From the NCBI GenBank assembly GCA_030635145.1, contig DAOVZK010000002.1:21119-85118 (forward strand): a stretch of 64,000 bases of DNA, written 5' to 3'. The position numbers and the translations under genes were made by a program. The notes below the pieces were generated by a model. The model saw only the letters and a list, made by a program, of their open reading frames with translations, did not search any database and was not told the DNA's origin. Origin of the DNA: Planctomycetota bacterium (lineage in GTDB: Bacteria > Planctomycetota > Phycisphaerae > SM23-33). Of the stretch, positions 48,404 to 55,431 are shown piece by piece (the stretch's first letter is position 1; each line of letters starts with the position of its first letter).

Positions 48404-48476
48404 AAACCACAAACAGCCGATGGTGAGAATCGAACTCGCAACCCCAGCTTTACGAAAGCTGTGCTCTACCGTTGAG
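48404..48476 (-). tRNA. tRNA-Thr (anticodon CGU)
   Basis: Acceptor GCCGATG/CATCGGC (7/7), D-arm GCTC-AACGGTA-GAGC, anticodon arm CAGCT-TTCGTAA-AGCTG (U33, CGU, A37), T-arm GCGAG-TTCGATT-CTCAC (one C·A mismatch), discriminator U. Confidence 0.8.
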
Positions 48477-48587
48477 CTACATCGGCCTATCCGCCGCATC
48501 GCGACGGGTGCGATATTGTAGAAAATAATCCCAAAAATGACAAGAGGTTTACCTCAGAATCGTGAATATTGCTCACTTGAAATTTGG

Positions 48588-49754
48588 TTATTCTATGAGC
48601 ATCGCGCCGGGGGCAGGATGAGTGGCAAAAATTGGTGGGCGGCGATGGTATTGTTTTTTAAAACCGTCGGAGATCACTTGCGTAACTGACTCCGCGTGGT
48701 TTTCCTCGACCAGCACAATTGCGCACCCCCCAAACCCACCACCGGTCATTCTCGCTCCGAATACTCCGGATCGCGGAATCGCAAGATCAACGATTGTGTC
48801 GAGTTCGGGGCAACTGACTTCAAAGTCATCCCGAAGCGATGCGTGTGAGGCGTACATCAACTCGCCGAATTTTTGCAGGTATCCATCTGCTTTAAAGGTA
48901 AGCAGGTCGGCGGCGGCGAGGGTTCGTGCGATTTCGGTAACCACATGCCGTGAGCGTCGCATTTGCAGGTCGCTGATCTTACTGGCTGCGACGGCTTGGG
49001 CGATCATTTCTTCTGTCGCGTCACGAAGGGCGGGAATCCCGAGAATCTCCGCCGCCGCCTCACACTGCTTTCGGCGAGCGGGATAACCACCATCACCAAT
49101 ATCGTGCGACACCTGCGTATCAACAACAAGCAAAACTGTGTTTGGTGCATCGAAGGGTATCTGACGCGTTTGGCCAGAGCGGCAGTCCAAAAGCAGGGCA
49201 TGATTGGCTTGCCCCATGACGGAAATGGACTGATCCATAATTCCACACGGTGCGCCTGCGAAGGTGTTTTCGGCATGCTGACAGATTTTCGCGAGGAGAT
49301 GCGGTTTGACACTGGATTCGCTACCACAAACCGCCAGAAGAGCAACGCCAGTGGCGACTTCCAGCGAGGCAGAGCTGCTAAGCCCGGCGTTGAGAGGAAC
49401 GTTGCTGTCGAAAAGTATATTGCATCCAGCAAGCTCGATTCCGTTTTCGATAAGCCCTGCTGCAACACCGCGACAATAATTTCCCCATGCGTGCTGCCCC
49501 GTTTCAATCGCAGTACACAGGTCGATTTCGTCGCACTTGTTCGGTTGCTGGAGCGAGGCGAAGACTACTCGTCCATCGTCGCGTGGTGCCCAGGCGGCGA
49601 GGGTTCGTTGCTCGATTGCTATGGGTAAAACGAATCCGTCGTTATAGTCGGTATGTTCACCGATGAGATTGACTCGGCCTGGTGCGGCGACGATGCCTTT
49701 TGGGGTTACCCCAAACGCTTTGCGAAATTCGTCTTTTATCTTTTGGGTACTCAT
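48588..49754 (-). CDS. galK: galactokinase
   Basis: PGRVNLIGEHTDYNDGFVLPIAI galactokinase signature and the GHMP kinase motif GLSSSASLE. Confidence 0.9.
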   Translation of the reverse strand: MSTQKIKDEFRKAFGVTPKGIVAAPGRVNLIGEHTDYNDGFVLPIAIEQRTLAAWAPRDDGRVVFASLQQPNKCDEIDLCTAIETGQHAWGNYCRGVAAGLIENGIELAGCNILFDSNVPLNAGLSSSASLEVATGVALLAVCGSESSVKPHLLAKICQHAENTFAGAPCGIMDQSISVMGQANHALLLDCRSGQTRQIPFDAPNTVLLVVDTQVSHDIGDGGYPARRKQCEAAAEILGIPALRDATEEMIAQAVAASKISDLQMRRSRHVVTEIARTLAAADLLTFKADGYLQKFGELMYASHASLRDDFEVSCPELDTIVDLAIPRSGVFGARMTGGGFGGCAIVLVEENHAESVTQVISDGFKKQYHRRPPIFATHPAPGAMLIE

Positions 49755-52390
49755 AGTTCTTCTTTAAGTTTTCGCAGCAGATCGAGTGCCTGCATCGGGG
49801 TCATGTTTTCGATATCGGCGTGCTTGATTTCTGAGGCCACCCGGGCGGACGGATCGGCGAAGAGATTCATTTGCGCAGCGGCCGCCTTGGCACGCTGGGC
49901 GAGTTCCGGCATATCAAGGCCTTGCGCGAGATGCGCCTGCAGCTGTGGCAGCAATTCTTTCGCGCGATTCACAACGTCGCGTGGCACACCGGCCAGCCGG
50001 GCCACATGCACACCGTAGCTCTGGTCGGTTCCGCCTTTGACGATTTTGTGCAGGAAGATTACTTCGTCGGCCCATTCGCGGACGGCGACGTTAAGATTCG
50101 TCGTTCCGTCGAGGAGCGTTTCCAGCTCGGTAAGTTCGTGGTAGTGCGTGGCGAAAAGCGTGCGGGCCTTGACATGCAACGCGATGAATTCGCAAATCGC
50201 CCACGCCAGAGCGAGTCCGTCGCAGGTGCTTGTTCCTCGCCCGACCTCGTCGAGAATCACCAGCGAACGCGGCGTGGCGTTGTTGAGGATGTTCGCGGTT
50301 TCGACCATCTCGAGCATAAACGTGCTCAACCCGCGCGAAAGTTCGTCGGCGGCCCCGACACGAGTGAAGATGCGGTCCGTCAAACCAATCGTTGCCGACT
50401 CGGCCGGGATAAACGACCCAGCTTGGGCCATCAGCACCAGCAACGCCGTCTGGCGAATGTATGTACTTTTGCCCGCCATGTTCGGCCCGGTAATAATCAG
50501 CAGGCGATCATCTTTCGCGCCCATTTTTACGTCGTTGGGGACAAACTGATCTCGCAGCTGCTGGGCTACGACCGGATGTTTTCCGCCCGTGATATCCAGC
50601 ATGTTTTCCTGCGTAATTGTCGGCCGAATATACCCGCGTTCGACAGCTACCTGCGCCAACCCGCACAAAACGTCCAACGTCGCCAACGCTTCAGCTGCCC
50701 GCTGAAACGCCTCGGTATACGATGCCAACTCGCACCGCAACTCCTCGAAAAGTCGATGCTCCAAATCGCGCCCGCGTTGGGCAGCGGTGAGAACTTCCGA
50801 CTCGTACTTCTTGAGTTCGTCGGTAATGTATCGCTCGGCGTTTTTGAGCGTCTGCTTGCGAACGTAGTCGGGGGGCACCTTCTCGGAATAGGCGTGCGAC
50901 ACCTCTATGTAGTATCCGAAAACGCGATTGAATCCGACCTTCAGCGGAATTCCCGCCTGCTCGGTTTGCGTCTGCTGGTAATTCGCCAGCCACGTTTTCC
51001 CGTCCTGCCCGATGCTTCGCAAATGATCGAGCTGTTCGTCGAATCCCGACGCGAGAACCCCACCGTCGCGCAAAACGTTCGGGCAGTCGGGGTCGATAGC
51101 GTTTGCGATCAGCTCGGCGGGGCGCTCTAATCCGAGCAACGCGGGTTGATGCTGCGCGACGATATCCGAAGCAGCGACGGCCGCGGAAAGTTGCTCGGCC
51201 AGTGCCGGTAAAATCGCAAGCGTTTGCCCCAACCCCACAAGCTCGCGAGGCCGAACGCGCGACATCGCAATGTTCGTCGAAATTCGGTCGATCTGCGCAC
51301 AGTTGGCGAGAAAATCGCGAATGCTTTCGAGCATGTCACGCTGATCAGCGAAAAACTCAACCGCGTCCTGCCGGGCCGTAATCCCAGAATAACTCACCAG
51401 CGGAAACGTCAACCAACGCTCCAACAATCGTGCACCCATCCCGCTACAGGTTTTGTCGATGCAACCCAGCAAGCTACCGGCGCGTTTGTTGCTGCGCAGG
51501 GTTCGGTGAACTTCGAGGCAGCGTAGCGTGTTACCGTCGATGGCCATGAAGTCGGTAGGCTCAAATTTTTTCAGCGTACAAATGTGGTCGAGCGCAGCCT
51601 TCTGCGTATCACGAAGATACTCAATCACGCCACCCGCCGCCGACACACTTTCGTCCCATCCGTCAATACCGAACCCCTCGAGAGTTTTGGTTTTGAAATG
51701 TTCGTTGAGCGTTTTTTCCGAGGCGTGGGCGTCGAAACTCCACGGCGGCCGCGAGGTACCCGGTGCATCGAGCGCAAGACGCAAATTATCGCGCCATTGC
51801 GGAGTGTCAAATTCGCTGCCTTCGGGATAGATAACCTCGGCCGGGCCGATGCGGACGAGTTCGTCCATGGCGTGATGCTTCGGAACGTTCATCGTCCAGA
51901 ACGATCCGCTGGAAAGCTCAACCCATGCAAGCCCGACCATTGACTCGCCGTTAGAGTCGGCGGATTTTGATTTTGACGGCACAGCAAAAACGCCCGCGAG
52001 ATAATTCCCCACCCGCTGATCGAGCAGAGTTTCGTCGGTGAGCGTTCCGGGCGTCACGAGGCGAACAACGTCGCGTTTAACCACACCCTTTGCCTGCTTG
52101 GGATCCTCAACCTGCTCGCAGATCGCCACCCTCTGGTCGGCCTGTATGAGTCTCCCGAGATAATTGTCGAGCGCGTGATACGGAATCCCCGCCAGCGGCA
52201 CAGCTGTCGGGCCTTTCGAGCGGGCCGTCAGCGTGATGCCCAAAATTCGCGACGCGGTCTTGGCGTCCTCGTAAAACATCTCGTAAAAGTCGCCCATCCG
52301 AAACAGCAGAATATAGTCCGGGTACTGCTCCTTGAAGGAGTGGTACTGCCGCATCGCAGGAGTATCGAGTTTTACTGTTTGCTCCGTCAT
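49751..52390 (-). CDS. mutS: DNA mismatch repair protein MutS
   Basis: The N-terminus TPAMRQYHSFKEQYPDYILLFRMGDFYEMFYEDA and the Walker A ITGPNMAGKSTYIRQ. The start is taken at MTEQTV (52390) rather than the ORF-track Met at 52414. The 3' end overlaps the galK start by 4 nt. Confidence 0.9.
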   Translation of the reverse strand: MTEQTVKLDTPAMRQYHSFKEQYPDYILLFRMGDFYEMFYEDAKTASRILGITLTARSKGPTAVPLAGIPYHALDNYLGRLIQADQRVAICEQVEDPKQAKGVVKRDVVRLVTPGTLTDETLLDQRVGNYLAGVFAVPSKSKSADSNGESMVGLAWVELSSGSFWTMNVPKHHAMDELVRIGPAEVIYPEGSEFDTPQWRDNLRLALDAPGTSRPPWSFDAHASEKTLNEHFKTKTLEGFGIDGWDESVSAAGGVIEYLRDTQKAALDHICTLKKFEPTDFMAIDGNTLRCLEVHRTLRSNKRAGSLLGCIDKTCSGMGARLLERWLTFPLVSYSGITARQDAVEFFADQRDMLESIRDFLANCAQIDRISTNIAMSRVRPRELVGLGQTLAILPALAEQLSAAVAASDIVAQHQPALLGLERPAELIANAIDPDCPNVLRDGGVLASGFDEQLDHLRSIGQDGKTWLANYQQTQTEQAGIPLKVGFNRVFGYYIEVSHAYSEKVPPDYVRKQTLKNAERYITDELKKYESEVLTAAQRGRDLEHRLFEELRCELASYTEAFQRAAEALATLDVLCGLAQVAVERGYIRPTITQENMLDITGGKHPVVAQQLRDQFVPNDVKMGAKDDRLLIITGPNMAGKSTYIRQTALLVLMAQAGSFIPAESATIGLTDRIFTRVGAADELSRGLSTFMLEMVETANILNNATPRSLVILDEVGRGTSTCDGLALAWAICEFIALHVKARTLFATHYHELTELETLLDGTTNLNVAVREWADEVIFLHKIVKGGTDQSYGVHVARLAGVPRDVVNRAKELLPQLQAHLAQGLDMPELAQRAKAAAAQMNLFADPSARVASEIKHADIENMTPMQALDLLRKLKEEL

Positions 52391-52544
52391 AGTGAAGGGG
52401 AAATGATAATCCATAGGGCGAGGTTTTTCACGAGAATTCTTATCTGGGTGATGTGTTGGGTGCCATACTTCTATTCAATAGAAGCATGTCTTGATCTTGG
52501 TAAACACGGATTTTGTTCTGTCATGCTCGGCCACGACCGGGCAT

Positions 52545-52800
52545 CCAGGGGGTCGTAGCACAACAGGTAATAAAAAACCCGCGAGAATCGTAAGAGTGGA
52601 ATATCCAACACCCAACACTCAATGTCCAATTTTCAAGGTAAGAGAACCACAGCCCGGTAGCACCGGTGGCGATAAAAGACACAGATAGACACAGATTTTT
52701 TTGTCACCCTCGCGAAAGCGGGGGTCCAGTATTTTCTGGGTGGCTGGGTGCCGTGGTTGCGGTGTTTGCAACCACGTTTAACAAAAATTCCGATTCCCGT
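52545..52800. repeat. REP-like palindromic element cluster (copy 2)
   Basis: Contains GGGGGTCGTAGCAC, CCCGGTAGCACCGGTGG, the GNRA-capped hairpin CCCTCGCgaaaGCGGGGG, the shared 42-bp block ctgggtgccgtggttgcggtgtttgcaaccacgtttaac, and a second hairpin CGTGGTTAtcccgcgaaacgcggtgTAACCACG reusing the same arms. Confidence 0.4.
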
Positions 52801-52844
52801 GGTTATCCCGCGAAACGCGGTGTAACCACGCCACCCGTCGTAAC

Positions 52845-53262
52845 ATTGTAGACTTACATTACGGCATTGCAGGCTTACATCGTGACATTGTAAGGTTACA
52901 TTACGGCATTGCAGGCTTACATCGTGGCATTGTAAGGTTACATTACGGCATTGCAGGCTTACATCGTGGCATTGCACGCTTACATTGAGGCATTGTAGAC
53001 TTACATTACGGCATTGTAAGGTTACATTACGACATTGTAAGTTTACATTGAGGCATTGCACGCTTACATTACGGCATTGCACGCTTACATTGAGGCATTG
53101 TAAGCTTACTCCGAGGCAAAGTAAGTTAACTCTACGGTAAAGTCAGCTTACTCTGTGGCAAAGTCAGTCAACTCTACGGCAAAGTCAGTCAACTCTACGG
53201 CAAAGTCAGCTTACTCCGAGGCAAAGTAAGTTAACTCTATGACAAAGTAAACGATCAAAATA
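52845..53262. repeat. tandem array of ~20 direct 21-bp repeats in two subfamilies, each unit with a dyad core GTAAnnTTAC
   Basis: Units 1-13 fit CATTG-YARGN-TTACAT-YRNGG (for example cattgcaggcttacatcgtgg / cattgtaaggttacattacgg alternating). Units 14-19 fit CAAAG-TMAGY-TWACTC-YRNGG. There are no spacers, so this is not CRISPR. The minus-strand ORF 52633..53082 (LQCRNVT heptads) is a translation artefact of the repeat. Confidence 0.8.
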
Positions 53263-53634
53263 ACGCATAAAGCGTTGATATTAAGGATGTTAAGCTAAAA
53301 ATCGCAAAAAGGACCCATTTCCAAGCCGAAATCCCCCGCCGGTGGGAGTGATGCTGATGGTGGCGCCGCTGGCGACGGGGATCCAGTTCTTTCTGGGTGC
53401 CATGCTTATCTCAGCATAGCGGGTAAGCATGTGGGAAACGAGCGAATACAAAACATGCTTCTGCGAGCAGAAGCATGGCACCCGGCTTTTTTAAAGTGGT
53501 TCCAAGGAAAACCTGTAAACAAGAACGAATAGATTACTTTACAATACGAATGTTGGATGTTATTTTACATTGGTCGCCAATAAATGGAGATTTTGTGTCG
53601 AATGGGAAGTTATGCGTCACAAATGGGAGATGTT

Positions 53635-53799
53635 ATGCCACTCAATATTAATTGTCCAAATTGCGGACAGCCAGCCGTAGTCCCTGATGCAGCGATTAAC
53701 AAACAGGGACGATGGATGGAAAACAAATCAACAAGGAAATGCGTTTGTTGGGCTGGGCGAATTATTCTCCCAAATCCCGATAAACCGGAAAGGGTATAA
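53635..53799 (+). CDS. small zinc-ribbon protein (54 aa), tentative
   Basis: MPLNINCPNCGQ...(25 aa)...CVCWAG gives a CxxC...CxC arrangement. Low GC. It ends 3 nt before the next gene. No RBS was checked, so this is tentative. Confidence 0.35.
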   Translation: MPLNINCPNCGQPAVVPDAAINKQGRWMENKSTRKCVCWAGRIILPNPDKPERV

Positions 53800-53801
53800 T
53801 T

Positions 53802-54518
53802 ATGAAAAATTCATTGTATCTAGCAGTTGTGATTGCAACCTTATTTTTTGGAACGAACACTGTATTTGCGGATGAATCTACTGAGCAGGAAATCAGAACG
53901 CTCCGGGCTGAAAATAAACTACTCAGGTCCACTATAAAAAGGCAAAAGAAGAAAATCGCAGAGCTTGAGAATAAAGTAAAAGCTATGGATTCGGGAACAA
54001 AAAAGGATGCACCAACCAAAACCGAAATAAAGAAGACTCAAAAAAATAAGGCTGCCAAGCTAATAACTCGAACCAAGCTGATATCTATCGCGAAAGAATA
54101 TCTGCACACTCCTGAAAAATTAACCCAAGTAAAACGTAAAAGATATCGAGATAAAGTTGAAACTGAAACTAAAAGCAAATTAATCGACCAGCATATAAAG
54201 ATACAAGGCACGCTTACAGATGTCAGTGCCACAAATACGGGAAAGTTTCGCGTCAGCGTAGTATATAAAAAAAGAGTAAGACACAGGGGGGGAGGACACG
54301 CTAAGCGAACAAGAAGTATCCAGCCCAGTAACTATATATATATTGACTTCATTACTGGAGACAAAAGAGTAATAGACCTTGAACCTGGAAGTGACGTAAC
54401 GGTTGAAGGTGTTATAGATAGTTATAGCATTGGTAGCGGATCTTTATTTAAATCCGGTAGCGACACCATAATCCGCCTAGAGCTTAAAAACGGGGCAATT
54501 ATAAAGAAGGGCGAGTGA
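53802..54518 (+). CDS. low-GC secreted coiled-coil protein, hypothetical
   Basis: Signal peptide LYLAVVIATLFFGTNTVFA, then the coiled coil EQEIRTLRAENKLLRSTIKRQKKKIAELENKVKAM, then a β-rich C-terminal half. Confidence 0.6.
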   Translation: MKNSLYLAVVIATLFFGTNTVFADESTEQEIRTLRAENKLLRSTIKRQKKKIAELENKVKAMDSGTKKDAPTKTEIKKTQKNKAAKLITRTKLISIAKEYLHTPEKLTQVKRKRYRDKVETETKSKLIDQHIKIQGTLTDVSATNTGKFRVSVVYKKRVRHRGGGHAKRTRSIQPSNYIYIDFITGDKRVIDLEPGSDVTVEGVIDSYSIGSGSLFKSGSDTIIRLELKNGAIIKKGE

Positions 54519-54675: not shown

Positions 54676-55251
54676 TTAGTTTCTCCTCGTTAGCATTTTC
54701 ATTCGTTCGTGGAATGGATGAGAGGTATTGTGTTCAGCATTCAGCGGAAGGTTTAAGTGCTTCTGAATGATAAGCTTCTCAATGTCACCAATATCCCCTT
54801 GACTAAAATCGTGAGGCACAATGCCCCCGCCCTTAACAACCCAACAGACAAAGGCGTTTTTCGCCATCCAATCTGACAATTGCTTTTCGTCGAAATCTAG
54901 CAACAGTTTCAGCTTTTTTCTGAGAGTGGAAACGGATTCAGAATTTCCACAGTGGAATTGGCGTATCCTACGGTCAAGATTGTTTGAGATTCCAACATAT
55001 ATCAGCACCTTCTTGGAAAACATTCCGCCAGCTTTTACGCAGCCTCTCGTTGGCACTCCATGTGGAACCTCCTTGAAGTACCACCCATAGATACCTGGAT
55101 CAGGCGGAATACACGGGGACTGAGTGATAATCTTCGTTACACCAGCAAGAAATGAGGGTTTTCTAAACGTCTTGGCGACCTTCTTGGCTACACGTTTCAA
55201 TTGTTTCAAATCTGCCATTAATGCGATCCTCTTACTACAGAAAATTCCCAT
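54676..55251 (-). CDS. GIY-YIG-like nuclease-domain protein with an unknown C-terminal domain
   Basis: PGIYGWYFKE ... VLIYVGISNNLDRRIRQFH resembles GIY ... YVG ... R..H of GIY-YIG with an unusually long (~30 aa) spacer. Low GC. Confidence 0.55.
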   Translation of the reverse strand: MGIFCSKRIALMADLKQLKRVAKKVAKTFRKPSFLAGVTKIITQSPCIPPDPGIYGWYFKEVPHGVPTRGCVKAGGMFSKKVLIYVGISNNLDRRIRQFHCGNSESVSTLRKKLKLLLDFDEKQLSDWMAKNAFVCWVVKGGGIVPHDFSQGDIGDIEKLIIQKHLNLPLNAEHNTSHPFHERMKMLTRRN

Positions 55252-55431
55252 CAGCCATGGGCCGGGTTTTAACCCGGCGTTGTTTTGGTAGCCGCAACTT
55301 TACATAATGCCGGGTCGAGACCCGGCCTACAAGCAAAAAAATCCGTGTCTATCAGTGTTAATCCGTGGTTCTCTTTCTTCTCTTCTCTGCAATTCCGAAA
55401 TCCGAATTCCACAATCCGAAATAGGCCCACG

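Follow-up and report, generated by a model that had tools for sequence, protein, structure and literature searches.

Tandem direct repeats that are coated cooperatively by a protein are known from plasmid centromeres and operators, such as parC of R1 (bound by ParR), parH of TP228 (bound by ParG) and the heptads of pSM19035 (bound by omega). Iterons and the centromeres of types Ib and II typically consist of tandem repeats of ~21-22 bp phased at two helical turns, and such centromeres lie upstream of their own operon. In type III toxin-antitoxin systems, the antitoxin is a repeat RNA with units of 34-45 nt. In a restriction-modification/DarTG island, the promoter contains three direct repeats of 9 bp, each of them built around the palindrome TAGCTA, and these are bound by the RptR repressor (PMC12255303). 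Here, we analysed an array of 21-bp repeats in a 64,000-nt stretch of a Planctomycetota genome (Phycisphaerae, assembly GCA_030635145.1, contig DAOVZK010000002.1, positions 21,119 to 85,118 of the forward strand; hereafter, the window). To our knowledge, almost no cis-regulatory elements have been characterised in this phylum. An initial annotation had taken the array for replication iterons or a partition site, perhaps the relic of an integrated replicon, and alternatively for the binding platform of a host regulator. On sequence comparison, it is a member of a previously undescribed family of about 150 related arrays (~147 loci surveyed), almost all in Planctomycetota. The family arrays end in a short terminal module, which is followed either by a gene for a protein with a fibronectin type III (fn3) domain or by variable cargo, among which defence genes are common. 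The alternative of a binding platform stays the best reading, since the conserved blocks are phased and the arrays stand upstream of co-oriented genes.

Like the RptR operators, these arrays are direct repeats with a palindromic core (consensus GTAAGCTTAC), directly upstream of and co-oriented with defence genes, and the family is widely conserved along with its site. They differ in size (21 bp x 2-20 vs 9 bp x 3), no repressor gene adjoins them, only about half of the units keep the palindrome, and their binding by a protein is a proposal of ours. In the window, the position and the defence context fit an operator of the RptR type; no promoter was located, and 5 of the 13 units of the main type have a perfect palindrome. 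With plasmid iterons and centromeres, the window array shares many phased direct repeats upstream of an operon, 21 bp being two helical turns, and its 19 copies of 21 bp agree with an iteron length of ~17-22 bp. Unlike these, the arrays come without par or rep genes and without a plasmid or phage context, are present in several chromosomal copies and are followed by fn3 genes or defence cargo. The arrays encoding type III antitoxin RNAs (ToxI, CptI, TenpI) are likewise spacer-less and upstream of a co-oriented gene in a defence context, and the window has a terminator-like hairpin between array and gene, as in those systems. In contrast to them, our units are 21 nt long and not ~34-45, reach 20 copies and have no conserved RNA fold; an endoribonuclease toxin gene downstream is not conserved among the loci, and the 71-aa and 238-aa open reading frames (ORFs) downstream of the window array contain no such domain. 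Repetitive extragenic palindromes (REP) and their mosaic elements (BIME) are also short palindromic repeats clustered between co-directional genes, but our units are strictly head-to-tail and not alternating, occupy few loci per genome and are conserved across classes instead of being species-specific; no gene for a REP-associated tyrosine transposase (RAYT) was seen. To integron attI/attC sites, the sole resemblance is a nearly invariant GTTAGGC (GTTRRRY-like) in the module, and no integrase recurs among the array neighbours.

Results

Anatomy of the window array

The array lies on the + strand and consists of head-to-tail 21-bp units, 13 of type A and six of type B, followed by a decayed 20th unit (53243-53263), as read from a print in 21-nt register. 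Its parts are as follows:

52844-53116, + strand: 13 A units, CATTG-YANGN-TTACAT-YRNGG, from Tandem Repeats Finder (TRF) and the register print
53117-53242, + strand: six B units in phase with the A units, CAAAG-TMAGY-TWACTC-YRNGG, from TRF and the register print
53243-53309, + strand: terminal module of 67 bp, three decayed units CAAAGTAAACGATCAAAATAA / CGCATAAAGCGTTGATATTAA / GGATGTTAAGCTAAAAATCGC, a diverged copy of the family module

The tandem array and its two unit types, both proposed in the initial annotation, were borne out, with 19 full units in exact register; the start moves from 52845 to 52844. TRF reported a period of 21 with 12.7 copies in the A part (52844-53109, score 273) and 6.4 copies in the B part (53115-53248), both with 0% indels, and the 21-bp period is strict although the units diverge by ~23% from each other. 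In the A part, a period of 42 scores 350, and since periods of 42 and 63 outscore 21 in the array, the alternation of two or three near-identical unit variants is real, as had been noticed. At up to three mismatches, the A consensus matches seven times and the B consensus four times, compared to 0 matches in 100 shuffles and none elsewhere in the 64 kb. A profile hidden Markov model (HMM) of three-unit blocks from other loci matched the window A units with E ~1e-19. The A and B units differ by a symmetric swap (T4/A15 to A4/T15), as would be expected of two related dimer specificities. A perfect GTAAnnTTAC dyad is present in 5 of the 13 A units, and the others read GCAGGCTTAC, GCACGCTTAC or GTAGACTTAC. 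The units are contiguous and without spacers, hence not a CRISPR, and no CRISPR or RNA family matched.

A family of arrays in Planctomycetota

The family was collected with the pattern CATTG-N5-TTACAT-N5-CATTG-N5-TTACAT (22 specified bases), which retrieved 27 loci in the GTDB species genomes, mostly metagenome-assembled genomes (MAGs) of Planctomycetota (Pirellulales, Sedimentisphaerales, Phycisphaerae), with several arrays in some genomes, and at least 120 loci in the JGI metagenomes. Among the 2.9 million viral contigs of IMG/VR, there were 0 matches. A literature search for the unit and module sequences returned no indexed paper, and keyword searches gave nothing on such arrays in Planctomycetota.

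The arrays contain 2-20 units, and 121 loci have units of the window type ("GG-type"). The logo of 951 such units reads C A T T G (T/C) A (A/G) G (C/G/T) T T A C A T (C/T) (G/A) (T/A) G G. Two blocks, GGCATTG and TTACAT, are near-invariant, with centres ~9.5 and 11.5 bp apart, while the spacers between them are free. Within the dyad, the right half, TTACAT, is nearly invariant and the left half varies freely without compensation; no covariation keeps the dyad. The dyad is therefore a property of the consensus and not of each unit, and the initial claim that every unit is centred on one stands for the consensus and for the five perfect A units only. At least 14 other loci have units of the CAAAG type (e.g., CAAAGTAAGCGTGACCTGTGG), like the B units of the window, next to an A array; as a rule these stand upstream of it, and in some cases downstream.

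Five further loci (L004, L009, L015, L017, L025), in MAGs of Bacteroidales, Prolixibacteraceae and Cytophagaceae, have 21-bp arrays of 10-19 units with the CATTG-N5-TTACAT skeleton. These Bacteroidota arrays are without the GG, the terminal module and the fn3 genes; they may be distant relatives of the family, or they may have a separate origin and simply fit the search pattern.

Of 105 non-redundant loci, 96 have the array between genes. In a set of 84 loci, the closest gene on the downstream side runs in the direction of the array in 75 and the closest one on the upstream side in 65, at median distances of ~165-170 nt.

The terminal module

A conserved module of ~63 bp (CGTTGTAAAYGGGCAAAAAGG / CAGATAAGTCGTTTATTTTAA / GGAAGTTAGGCGAAAAA), which corresponds to three decayed units, closes the array in phase in 64 of 139 loci. 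With nhmmer, a profile from which the window and the A-unit columns had been left out matched the window at 53247-53309 (E = 1.4e-5), the sole match in the 64 kb. RNAalifold found 0 consensus pairs in 48 terminal modules, and the module stretch of the window is unstructured (fold z = -0.6); the module is thus conserved as primary sequence and not as structure. The module is almost identical between loci on a 2.9-Mb Sedimentisphaerales scaffold and loci on Pirellulales-binned contigs, which suggests either horizontal spread or a very strong constraint.

A hairpin of 25-32 nt (CTTGCCCTGAG..GTCGAAYGGGGCAG) is inserted in the module between TTTTAAG and TTAGGCG in seven loci (L003, L013, L014, L059, L082, L124, L143), and other hairpins occupy two more fixed module positions (L003, L018, L014, L143). 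A structured RNA in the module, first suggested by these fixed-place hairpins in a few loci, was rejected in view of the RNAalifold result, and the hairpins look like small insertions. A nearly invariant heptamer of the module, GTTAGGC in most loci and GTTAAGC in the window (53290-53296), fits the integron core GTTRRRY and lies near the switch from conserved sequence to cargo; this likeness may be a coincidence. Readings of unit and module as a sigma-70, sigma-54 or extracytoplasmic function (ECF) sigma promoter or as a site for integration host factor (IHF) were compared with the consensus by eye and by scan, and none fits well.

The fn3 gene and the cargo

A single gene recurs next to the arrays. 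It encodes a protein of ~202-206 aa with a helical N-terminal half and a titin-like fn3 domain in the C-terminal half, and starts with M-(A/P)-RFP-(R/K)-(T/K)-EAEI, in which M1, R3, F4 and P5 are invariant. The protein family comprises 1353 clusters at 90% identity, with members up to 91% identical to the query, and is annotated at most as "fibronectin type III domain-containing protein". A sequence search of the PDB returned titin-like fn3 domains alone, for the C-terminal half, and a search of PHROGs gave no match. A ribbon-helix-helix N-terminus was considered and dropped, the AlphaFold model being too poor to judge it (predicted local distance difference test, pLDDT, 59).

Upstream of the array, 36 of 76 loci have the 206-aa type, or a C-terminal remnant of it, within 1.5 kb; downstream, 11 of 48 loci have the 202-aa type or an N-terminal remnant of it. 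All but one of these genes are on the array strand. At locus L111, which has no cargo, the module leads directly into the ATG of a 202-aa fn3 gene, 78 nt past the last unit. At other loci, the module is followed by decayed fn3 starts (ATGAGATTTTC, GATTTCACCACGAAG, ATGGCAAA), then by variable cargo, and then by an intact fn3 gene with a similar ribosome-binding region. The fn3 family, noted in L010, L026, L061, L075, L111, L134, L142, L148, L149 and others, occurs as paralogous pairs that surround variable cargo.

Restriction-modification, GmrSD, SIR2 and toxin-antitoxin genes are common between the module and the fn3 gene. Among the 114 non-redundant clusters of co-oriented neighbours from the ~147 loci, we found N6/N4 DNA methylases (five clusters), GmrSD_N (three), HsdR_N, SIR2_2 and HNH (two each), and further neighbour or cargo families include the EcoRI methylase, the HindIII endonuclease and nucleotidyltransferase/HEPN pairs. 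No Rep, Par or integrase family recurs among these clusters. On a 92-kb contig, a segment of fn3 gene, cargo, small array, C5 methylase and fn3 gene is flanked by housekeeping genes.

In four loci (L093, L107, L110, L122), a DNA methylase gene (DPPFKSDQDYNILF...) is broken at an identical base, which is the start of the first A unit (...CAAATCAAGG / CATTGTAAGG). Such a cut-off would be explained by a rearrangement that broke the DNA where the array begins on its 5′ side.

Coding potential, RNA structure and copy number

Among 65 related arrays with at least eight units, the best reading frame is open throughout in 26, and other frames with any open array are open in 3-5. No frame is consistently open, and the array does not lie inside a conserved reading frame. 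In the stop-poor frame, the Val and Gln codons have third positions (T12, T3) that are 91-93% invariant and rank among the most conserved bases. A coding repeat (minus-strand heptad QCRNVSL) was therefore rejected, as the frames are stopped in most arrays and conserved third positions are the opposite of a coding signature. In the window, a 149-aa ORF (52633-53082, - strand) and a 51-aa ORF (52985-53140, + strand) consist purely of repeat units (QCRNVSL and HCKLTLR heptads, respectively). The 149-aa ORF exists because the variable unit positions cannot make stops in that frame, and both ORFs are artefacts that are liable to be mis-called as genes.

In an Rfam search of the window, tRNAs alone passed the gathering score and nothing was found for the array; below threshold, the best matches within 52400-53620 were chance-level ones to microRNAs and a small RNA (FtrB). 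The array folds better on the minus strand (z = -6.1 vs -1.7), which follows from the palindrome-containing repeats and is no evidence for an RNA role.

In all 11 groups of loci that have both flanks in common (at least 90% identity), the copy number is identical, and differences are confined to loci sharing one flank. The arrays are thus stably maintained in the short term, and the behaviour of a variable number tandem repeat (VNTR), for which the initial annotation had proposed to look, was not seen. Over longer time scales, the 42/63-bp superperiods appear to show growth by duplication of blocks, and to this extent, they fit the unequal crossover that had been put forward. For the window locus itself, the only other copies are an identical NCBI contig and a Logan contig that stops before the array.

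Surroundings of the array in the window

The array sits in a non-coding gap of 1.17 kb between mutS (49751-52414, - strand) and small + strand ORFs. With this gap begins a low-GC island (GC ~0.36-0.48 vs ~0.56-0.59 around), which holds three genes, for the 71-aa ORF, the 238-aa ORF and a GIY-YIG_2 protein, and is followed by cdsA. The features around the array are:

52679-52703, + strand: left arm of a 25-bp inverted repeat bracketing the island, ACACAGATAGACACAGATTTTTTTG, which holds a 10-bp x 2 tandem repeat
52706-52830, + strand: three stable hairpins directly 5′ of the array, at 52706-52725 (GAAA loop), 52752-52776 and 52798-52830 (fold z = -4.9; inverted repeat)
53317-53325, + strand: ATTTCCAAG, a possible 9-mer remnant of the 5′ end of the fn3 gene (ATGGCAAGATTTCCAAGAACA), a weak likeness read against fn3 gene starts
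53393-53496, + strand: long hairpin followed by GGCUUUUUU (U6), terminator-like on the strand of the array, which it separates from the first downstream ORF (-43.6 kcal/mol, z = -4.2; inverted repeat)
53584-54518, + strand: downstream ORFs co-oriented with the array, of 71 aa (weak zinc-ribbon match) and 238 aa (signal peptide and coiled coil)
54676-55251, - strand: GIY-YIG_2 domain gene, third of the island (Pfam PF20815, E = 3.6e-16)
55334-55358, - strand: right arm of the 25-bp inverted repeat, just beyond the cdsA stop codon, 23/25 complementary to the left arm

The GC profile and the PF20815 match agree with the initial description of a low-GC island beside a GIY-YIG-like gene. At the protein level, no fn3 remnant was detectable in the window, and the 71-aa and 238-aa ORFs are common to no related locus. 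The hairpins 5′ of the array have no counterpart kept in other loci, and the terminator-like hairpin is built from genome-specific GGGTGCCATRCTT boxes. Outside the array and module, BLAST found no similarity between the window flanks and related loci, and in relatives with 75-76% MutS identity, the mutS neighbours are wholly different, so that the island is not datable by synteny.

The 25-bp inverted repeat (ACAC(A/T)GATAGACAC(A/G)GATTTTTTTG) encloses the whole 2.6-kb island, and just these two copies occur in the 64 kb. A related motif, (CACRGATNN)n with a T-run, follows fn3 stop codons in L007 and L149, with an inverted copy past the cargo in L007. The REP-like elements mentioned in the initial annotation are present as separate hairpin units that adjoin the array (GGGTGCCATRCTTCT-loop-AGAAGCATG, at 52458-52493, 53395-53407 and 53449-53483); they are inverted, ~1 kb apart and on both sides of it. 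A 24-nt direct repeat (CGGGGRTCCAGTWYTTTCTGGGTG, 88% identical) also lies on either side of the array (52719-52742 and 53376-53399). Within the window, the REP-like units and this direct repeat are confined to the array locus.

Discussion

We tentatively read the array as a phased DNA platform for a protein encoded elsewhere that would control the downstream operon, a reading that we prefer while holding it to be somewhat short of probable. The array would be the upstream cis-element of a conserved Planctomycetota locus. Since 21 bp make two helical turns and the GGCATTG and TTACAT blocks of each site are about one turn apart, the sites, repeated every two turns, would all face one side of the DNA, where a sequence-specific protein could coat them cooperatively. 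At cargo-free loci, the three decayed end units form the leader, the ribosome-binding region and the start codon of the ~202-aa fn3 gene. The platform would set the transcription of the downstream genes, by repression, silencing or activation, and the downstream slot would have been filled in many genomes, that of the window included, by horizontally acquired genes, mostly for defence. The nucleotide-level conservation over 121 loci and 951 units, the strict period, the position and orientation of the arrays and their stable copy number all argue for such a platform. The lack of coding potential and of conserved RNA structure, the symmetric swap between the A and B units and the precedent of the RptR operator repeats also speak for it.

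Several points weigh against it. No candidate binder was found, no regulator gene is consistently adjacent to the arrays, no helix-turn-helix or other regulator gene recurs there, and the fn3 protein has no recognisable DNA-binding domain and a poor structural model. A symmetric dimer site would not normally leave one half of its dyad unconserved, here the left one, and twenty sites are far above the needs of an ordinary operator. A scan with the sigma-70 consensus gave 8-9 of 12 matches at best, inside units, and no convincing promoter in the module. The strict co-orientation and the terminator-like hairpin of the window fit a transcribed RNA element equally well. Finally, the near-identity of the module between Sedimentisphaerales and Pirellulales-binned loci suggests horizontal spread, and its conservation may then reflect the element's own machinery instead of regulation by the host.

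That the array works as an RNA is rather unlikely. It would be transcribed with the flanking genes, or as a unit ending at the hairpin and U-run of 53393-53496, into a multivalent RNA, either a sponge or leader for an RNA-binding protein, like CsrB and the TRAP-binding trp leader, or a precursor cut into 21-nt units, like ToxI. The arrangement of the arrays between co-directional genes, the window hairpins upstream and the terminator-like hairpin with its U6 downstream on the same strand, the defence-gene setting, in which repeat-RNA antitoxins occur, and a GG dinucleotide kept in every unit would all suit this, but neither the units nor the module have a conserved secondary structure, the flanking hairpins of the window are not kept at other loci, the units are shorter than those of known type III antitoxins, and the downstream gene varies (methylases, helicases, GmrSD, membrane proteins), with no constant toxin or partner. 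A site of recombination or mobility, which we consider unlikely, would make the array and module the protein-binding arm of an attachment or insertion site that organises the capture or exchange of cargo at the fn3 start, after the model of integrase arm-type sites or of the repeated transposase sites at Tn7 and Mu ends. Much of the locus structure would be accounted for: the variable cargo starts at an almost constant point past the module; the module is followed by decayed 5′ ends of fn3, and past the cargo stands an intact fn3 gene whose leader is duplicated; C-terminal fn3 remnants lie upstream and N-terminal ones downstream; a methylase gene is truncated at the exact array edge; the non-coding sequence is near-identical across classes, with several copies per genome; the window island is enclosed by the 25-bp inverted repeat; and the GTTRRRY-like heptamer of the module is nearly invariant. 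However, no integrase, transposase or recombinase recurs (one Mutator transposase was found in the 114 neighbour clusters), and 2-20 perfectly phased copies are unlike known att sites or transposon ends. Moreover, the array is always on one side of the cargo and is present at the empty site of L111, and so it belongs to the resident locus and not to incoming DNA.

That an integrated plasmid or phage left the array behind, either as the iterons of its replication origin or as a parC/parS-like centromere, was the initial proposal and is highly improbable. The length and two-turn phasing of the direct repeats and the low-GC island are what one would expect of such elements, but the proposal found no support: no rep, parA/parM, parB/parR or integrase gene is present in the island or among the neighbours of the ~147 loci, and it is the start of a small fn3 gene, rather than any replication module, to which the array is linked. 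The idea of a replicon relic fared no better, in view of the 0 viral-contig matches, the several arrays per genome and the housekeeping genes on both sides on long contigs, a plasmid collection not having been searched. A phage origin was rejected on the same viral-contig result and on the empty PHROGs search. Nor do we give much weight to a selfish or neutral satellite, very unlikely in our view, which would expand by slippage or unequal crossover without a function for the cell. Its higher-order period of 42/63 bp, the spread of copy number between loci and the many other 7-10-bp tandem repeats in the same intergenic regions are compatible with such a satellite, whereas two blocks near-invariant between free spacers across hundreds of diverged units and two classes, the lack of indels, the fixed position and orientation relative to a conserved leader and a copy number that is stable where both flanks are common are not.

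Returning to the protein-binding platform, a wider role for it is quite unlikely, although it would join the regulatory and the cargo aspects of the locus. The array, module and fn3 gene would then form a phylum-wide "docking locus", at which the platform recruits a dedicated protein that both controls the expression of defence cargo and directs its site-specific capture at the first fn3 codons. This protein might be the fn3 protein, recruited by way of the M-x-RFP segment that is invariant at its N-terminus. The locus would provide an integron-like capture without a tyrosine recombinase, with a tandem-repeat site in place of attI/attC. Phased tandem arrays of binding sites are a kind of element already known, and there is a real chance that the array-leader-fn3 locus would be new as a cargo-docking system.

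The 21-bp unit and its leader of ~60 bp, conserved nearly base for base between Phycisphaerae/Sedimentisphaerales and Pirellulales-binned loci, mark a site where defence genes accumulate. If the platform reading is true, the unit would provide a defined DNA bait for a regulator or organiser of Planctomycetota defence islands and a sequence tag for locating such islands in metagenomes; should the array instead turn out to be an RNA element or a site of recombination, it would represent a novel kind of the one or the other. For annotation, the array accounts for the puzzling non-coding gap of ~1.2 kb and for the spurious 149-aa ORF.

Additional observations

The window is 100% identical over 16.6 kb to contig JAGLOU010000034.1 of GCA_023138805.1, a Phycisphaerae MAG. 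Locus L001, a Logan contig from SRR13892605, corresponds to window positions 48451-52548 with 100% identity throughout and stops ~300 bp before the array, which is consistent with assemblies breaking near the repeat.

Other short tandem repeats are present in the intergenic regions of L005, L008, L013, L019, L023, L100, L121 and L150. They have units of 7-10 bp (AGTCGAGA, CACCGTCC in 41 copies, GACAGAA, CTGTGGA, CTTCGTGNN), and there is a further 21-bp type, GCGTGATATGCCACAGATAAC. Tandem repeats thus seem to be a general trait of the variable regions in carrier genomes.

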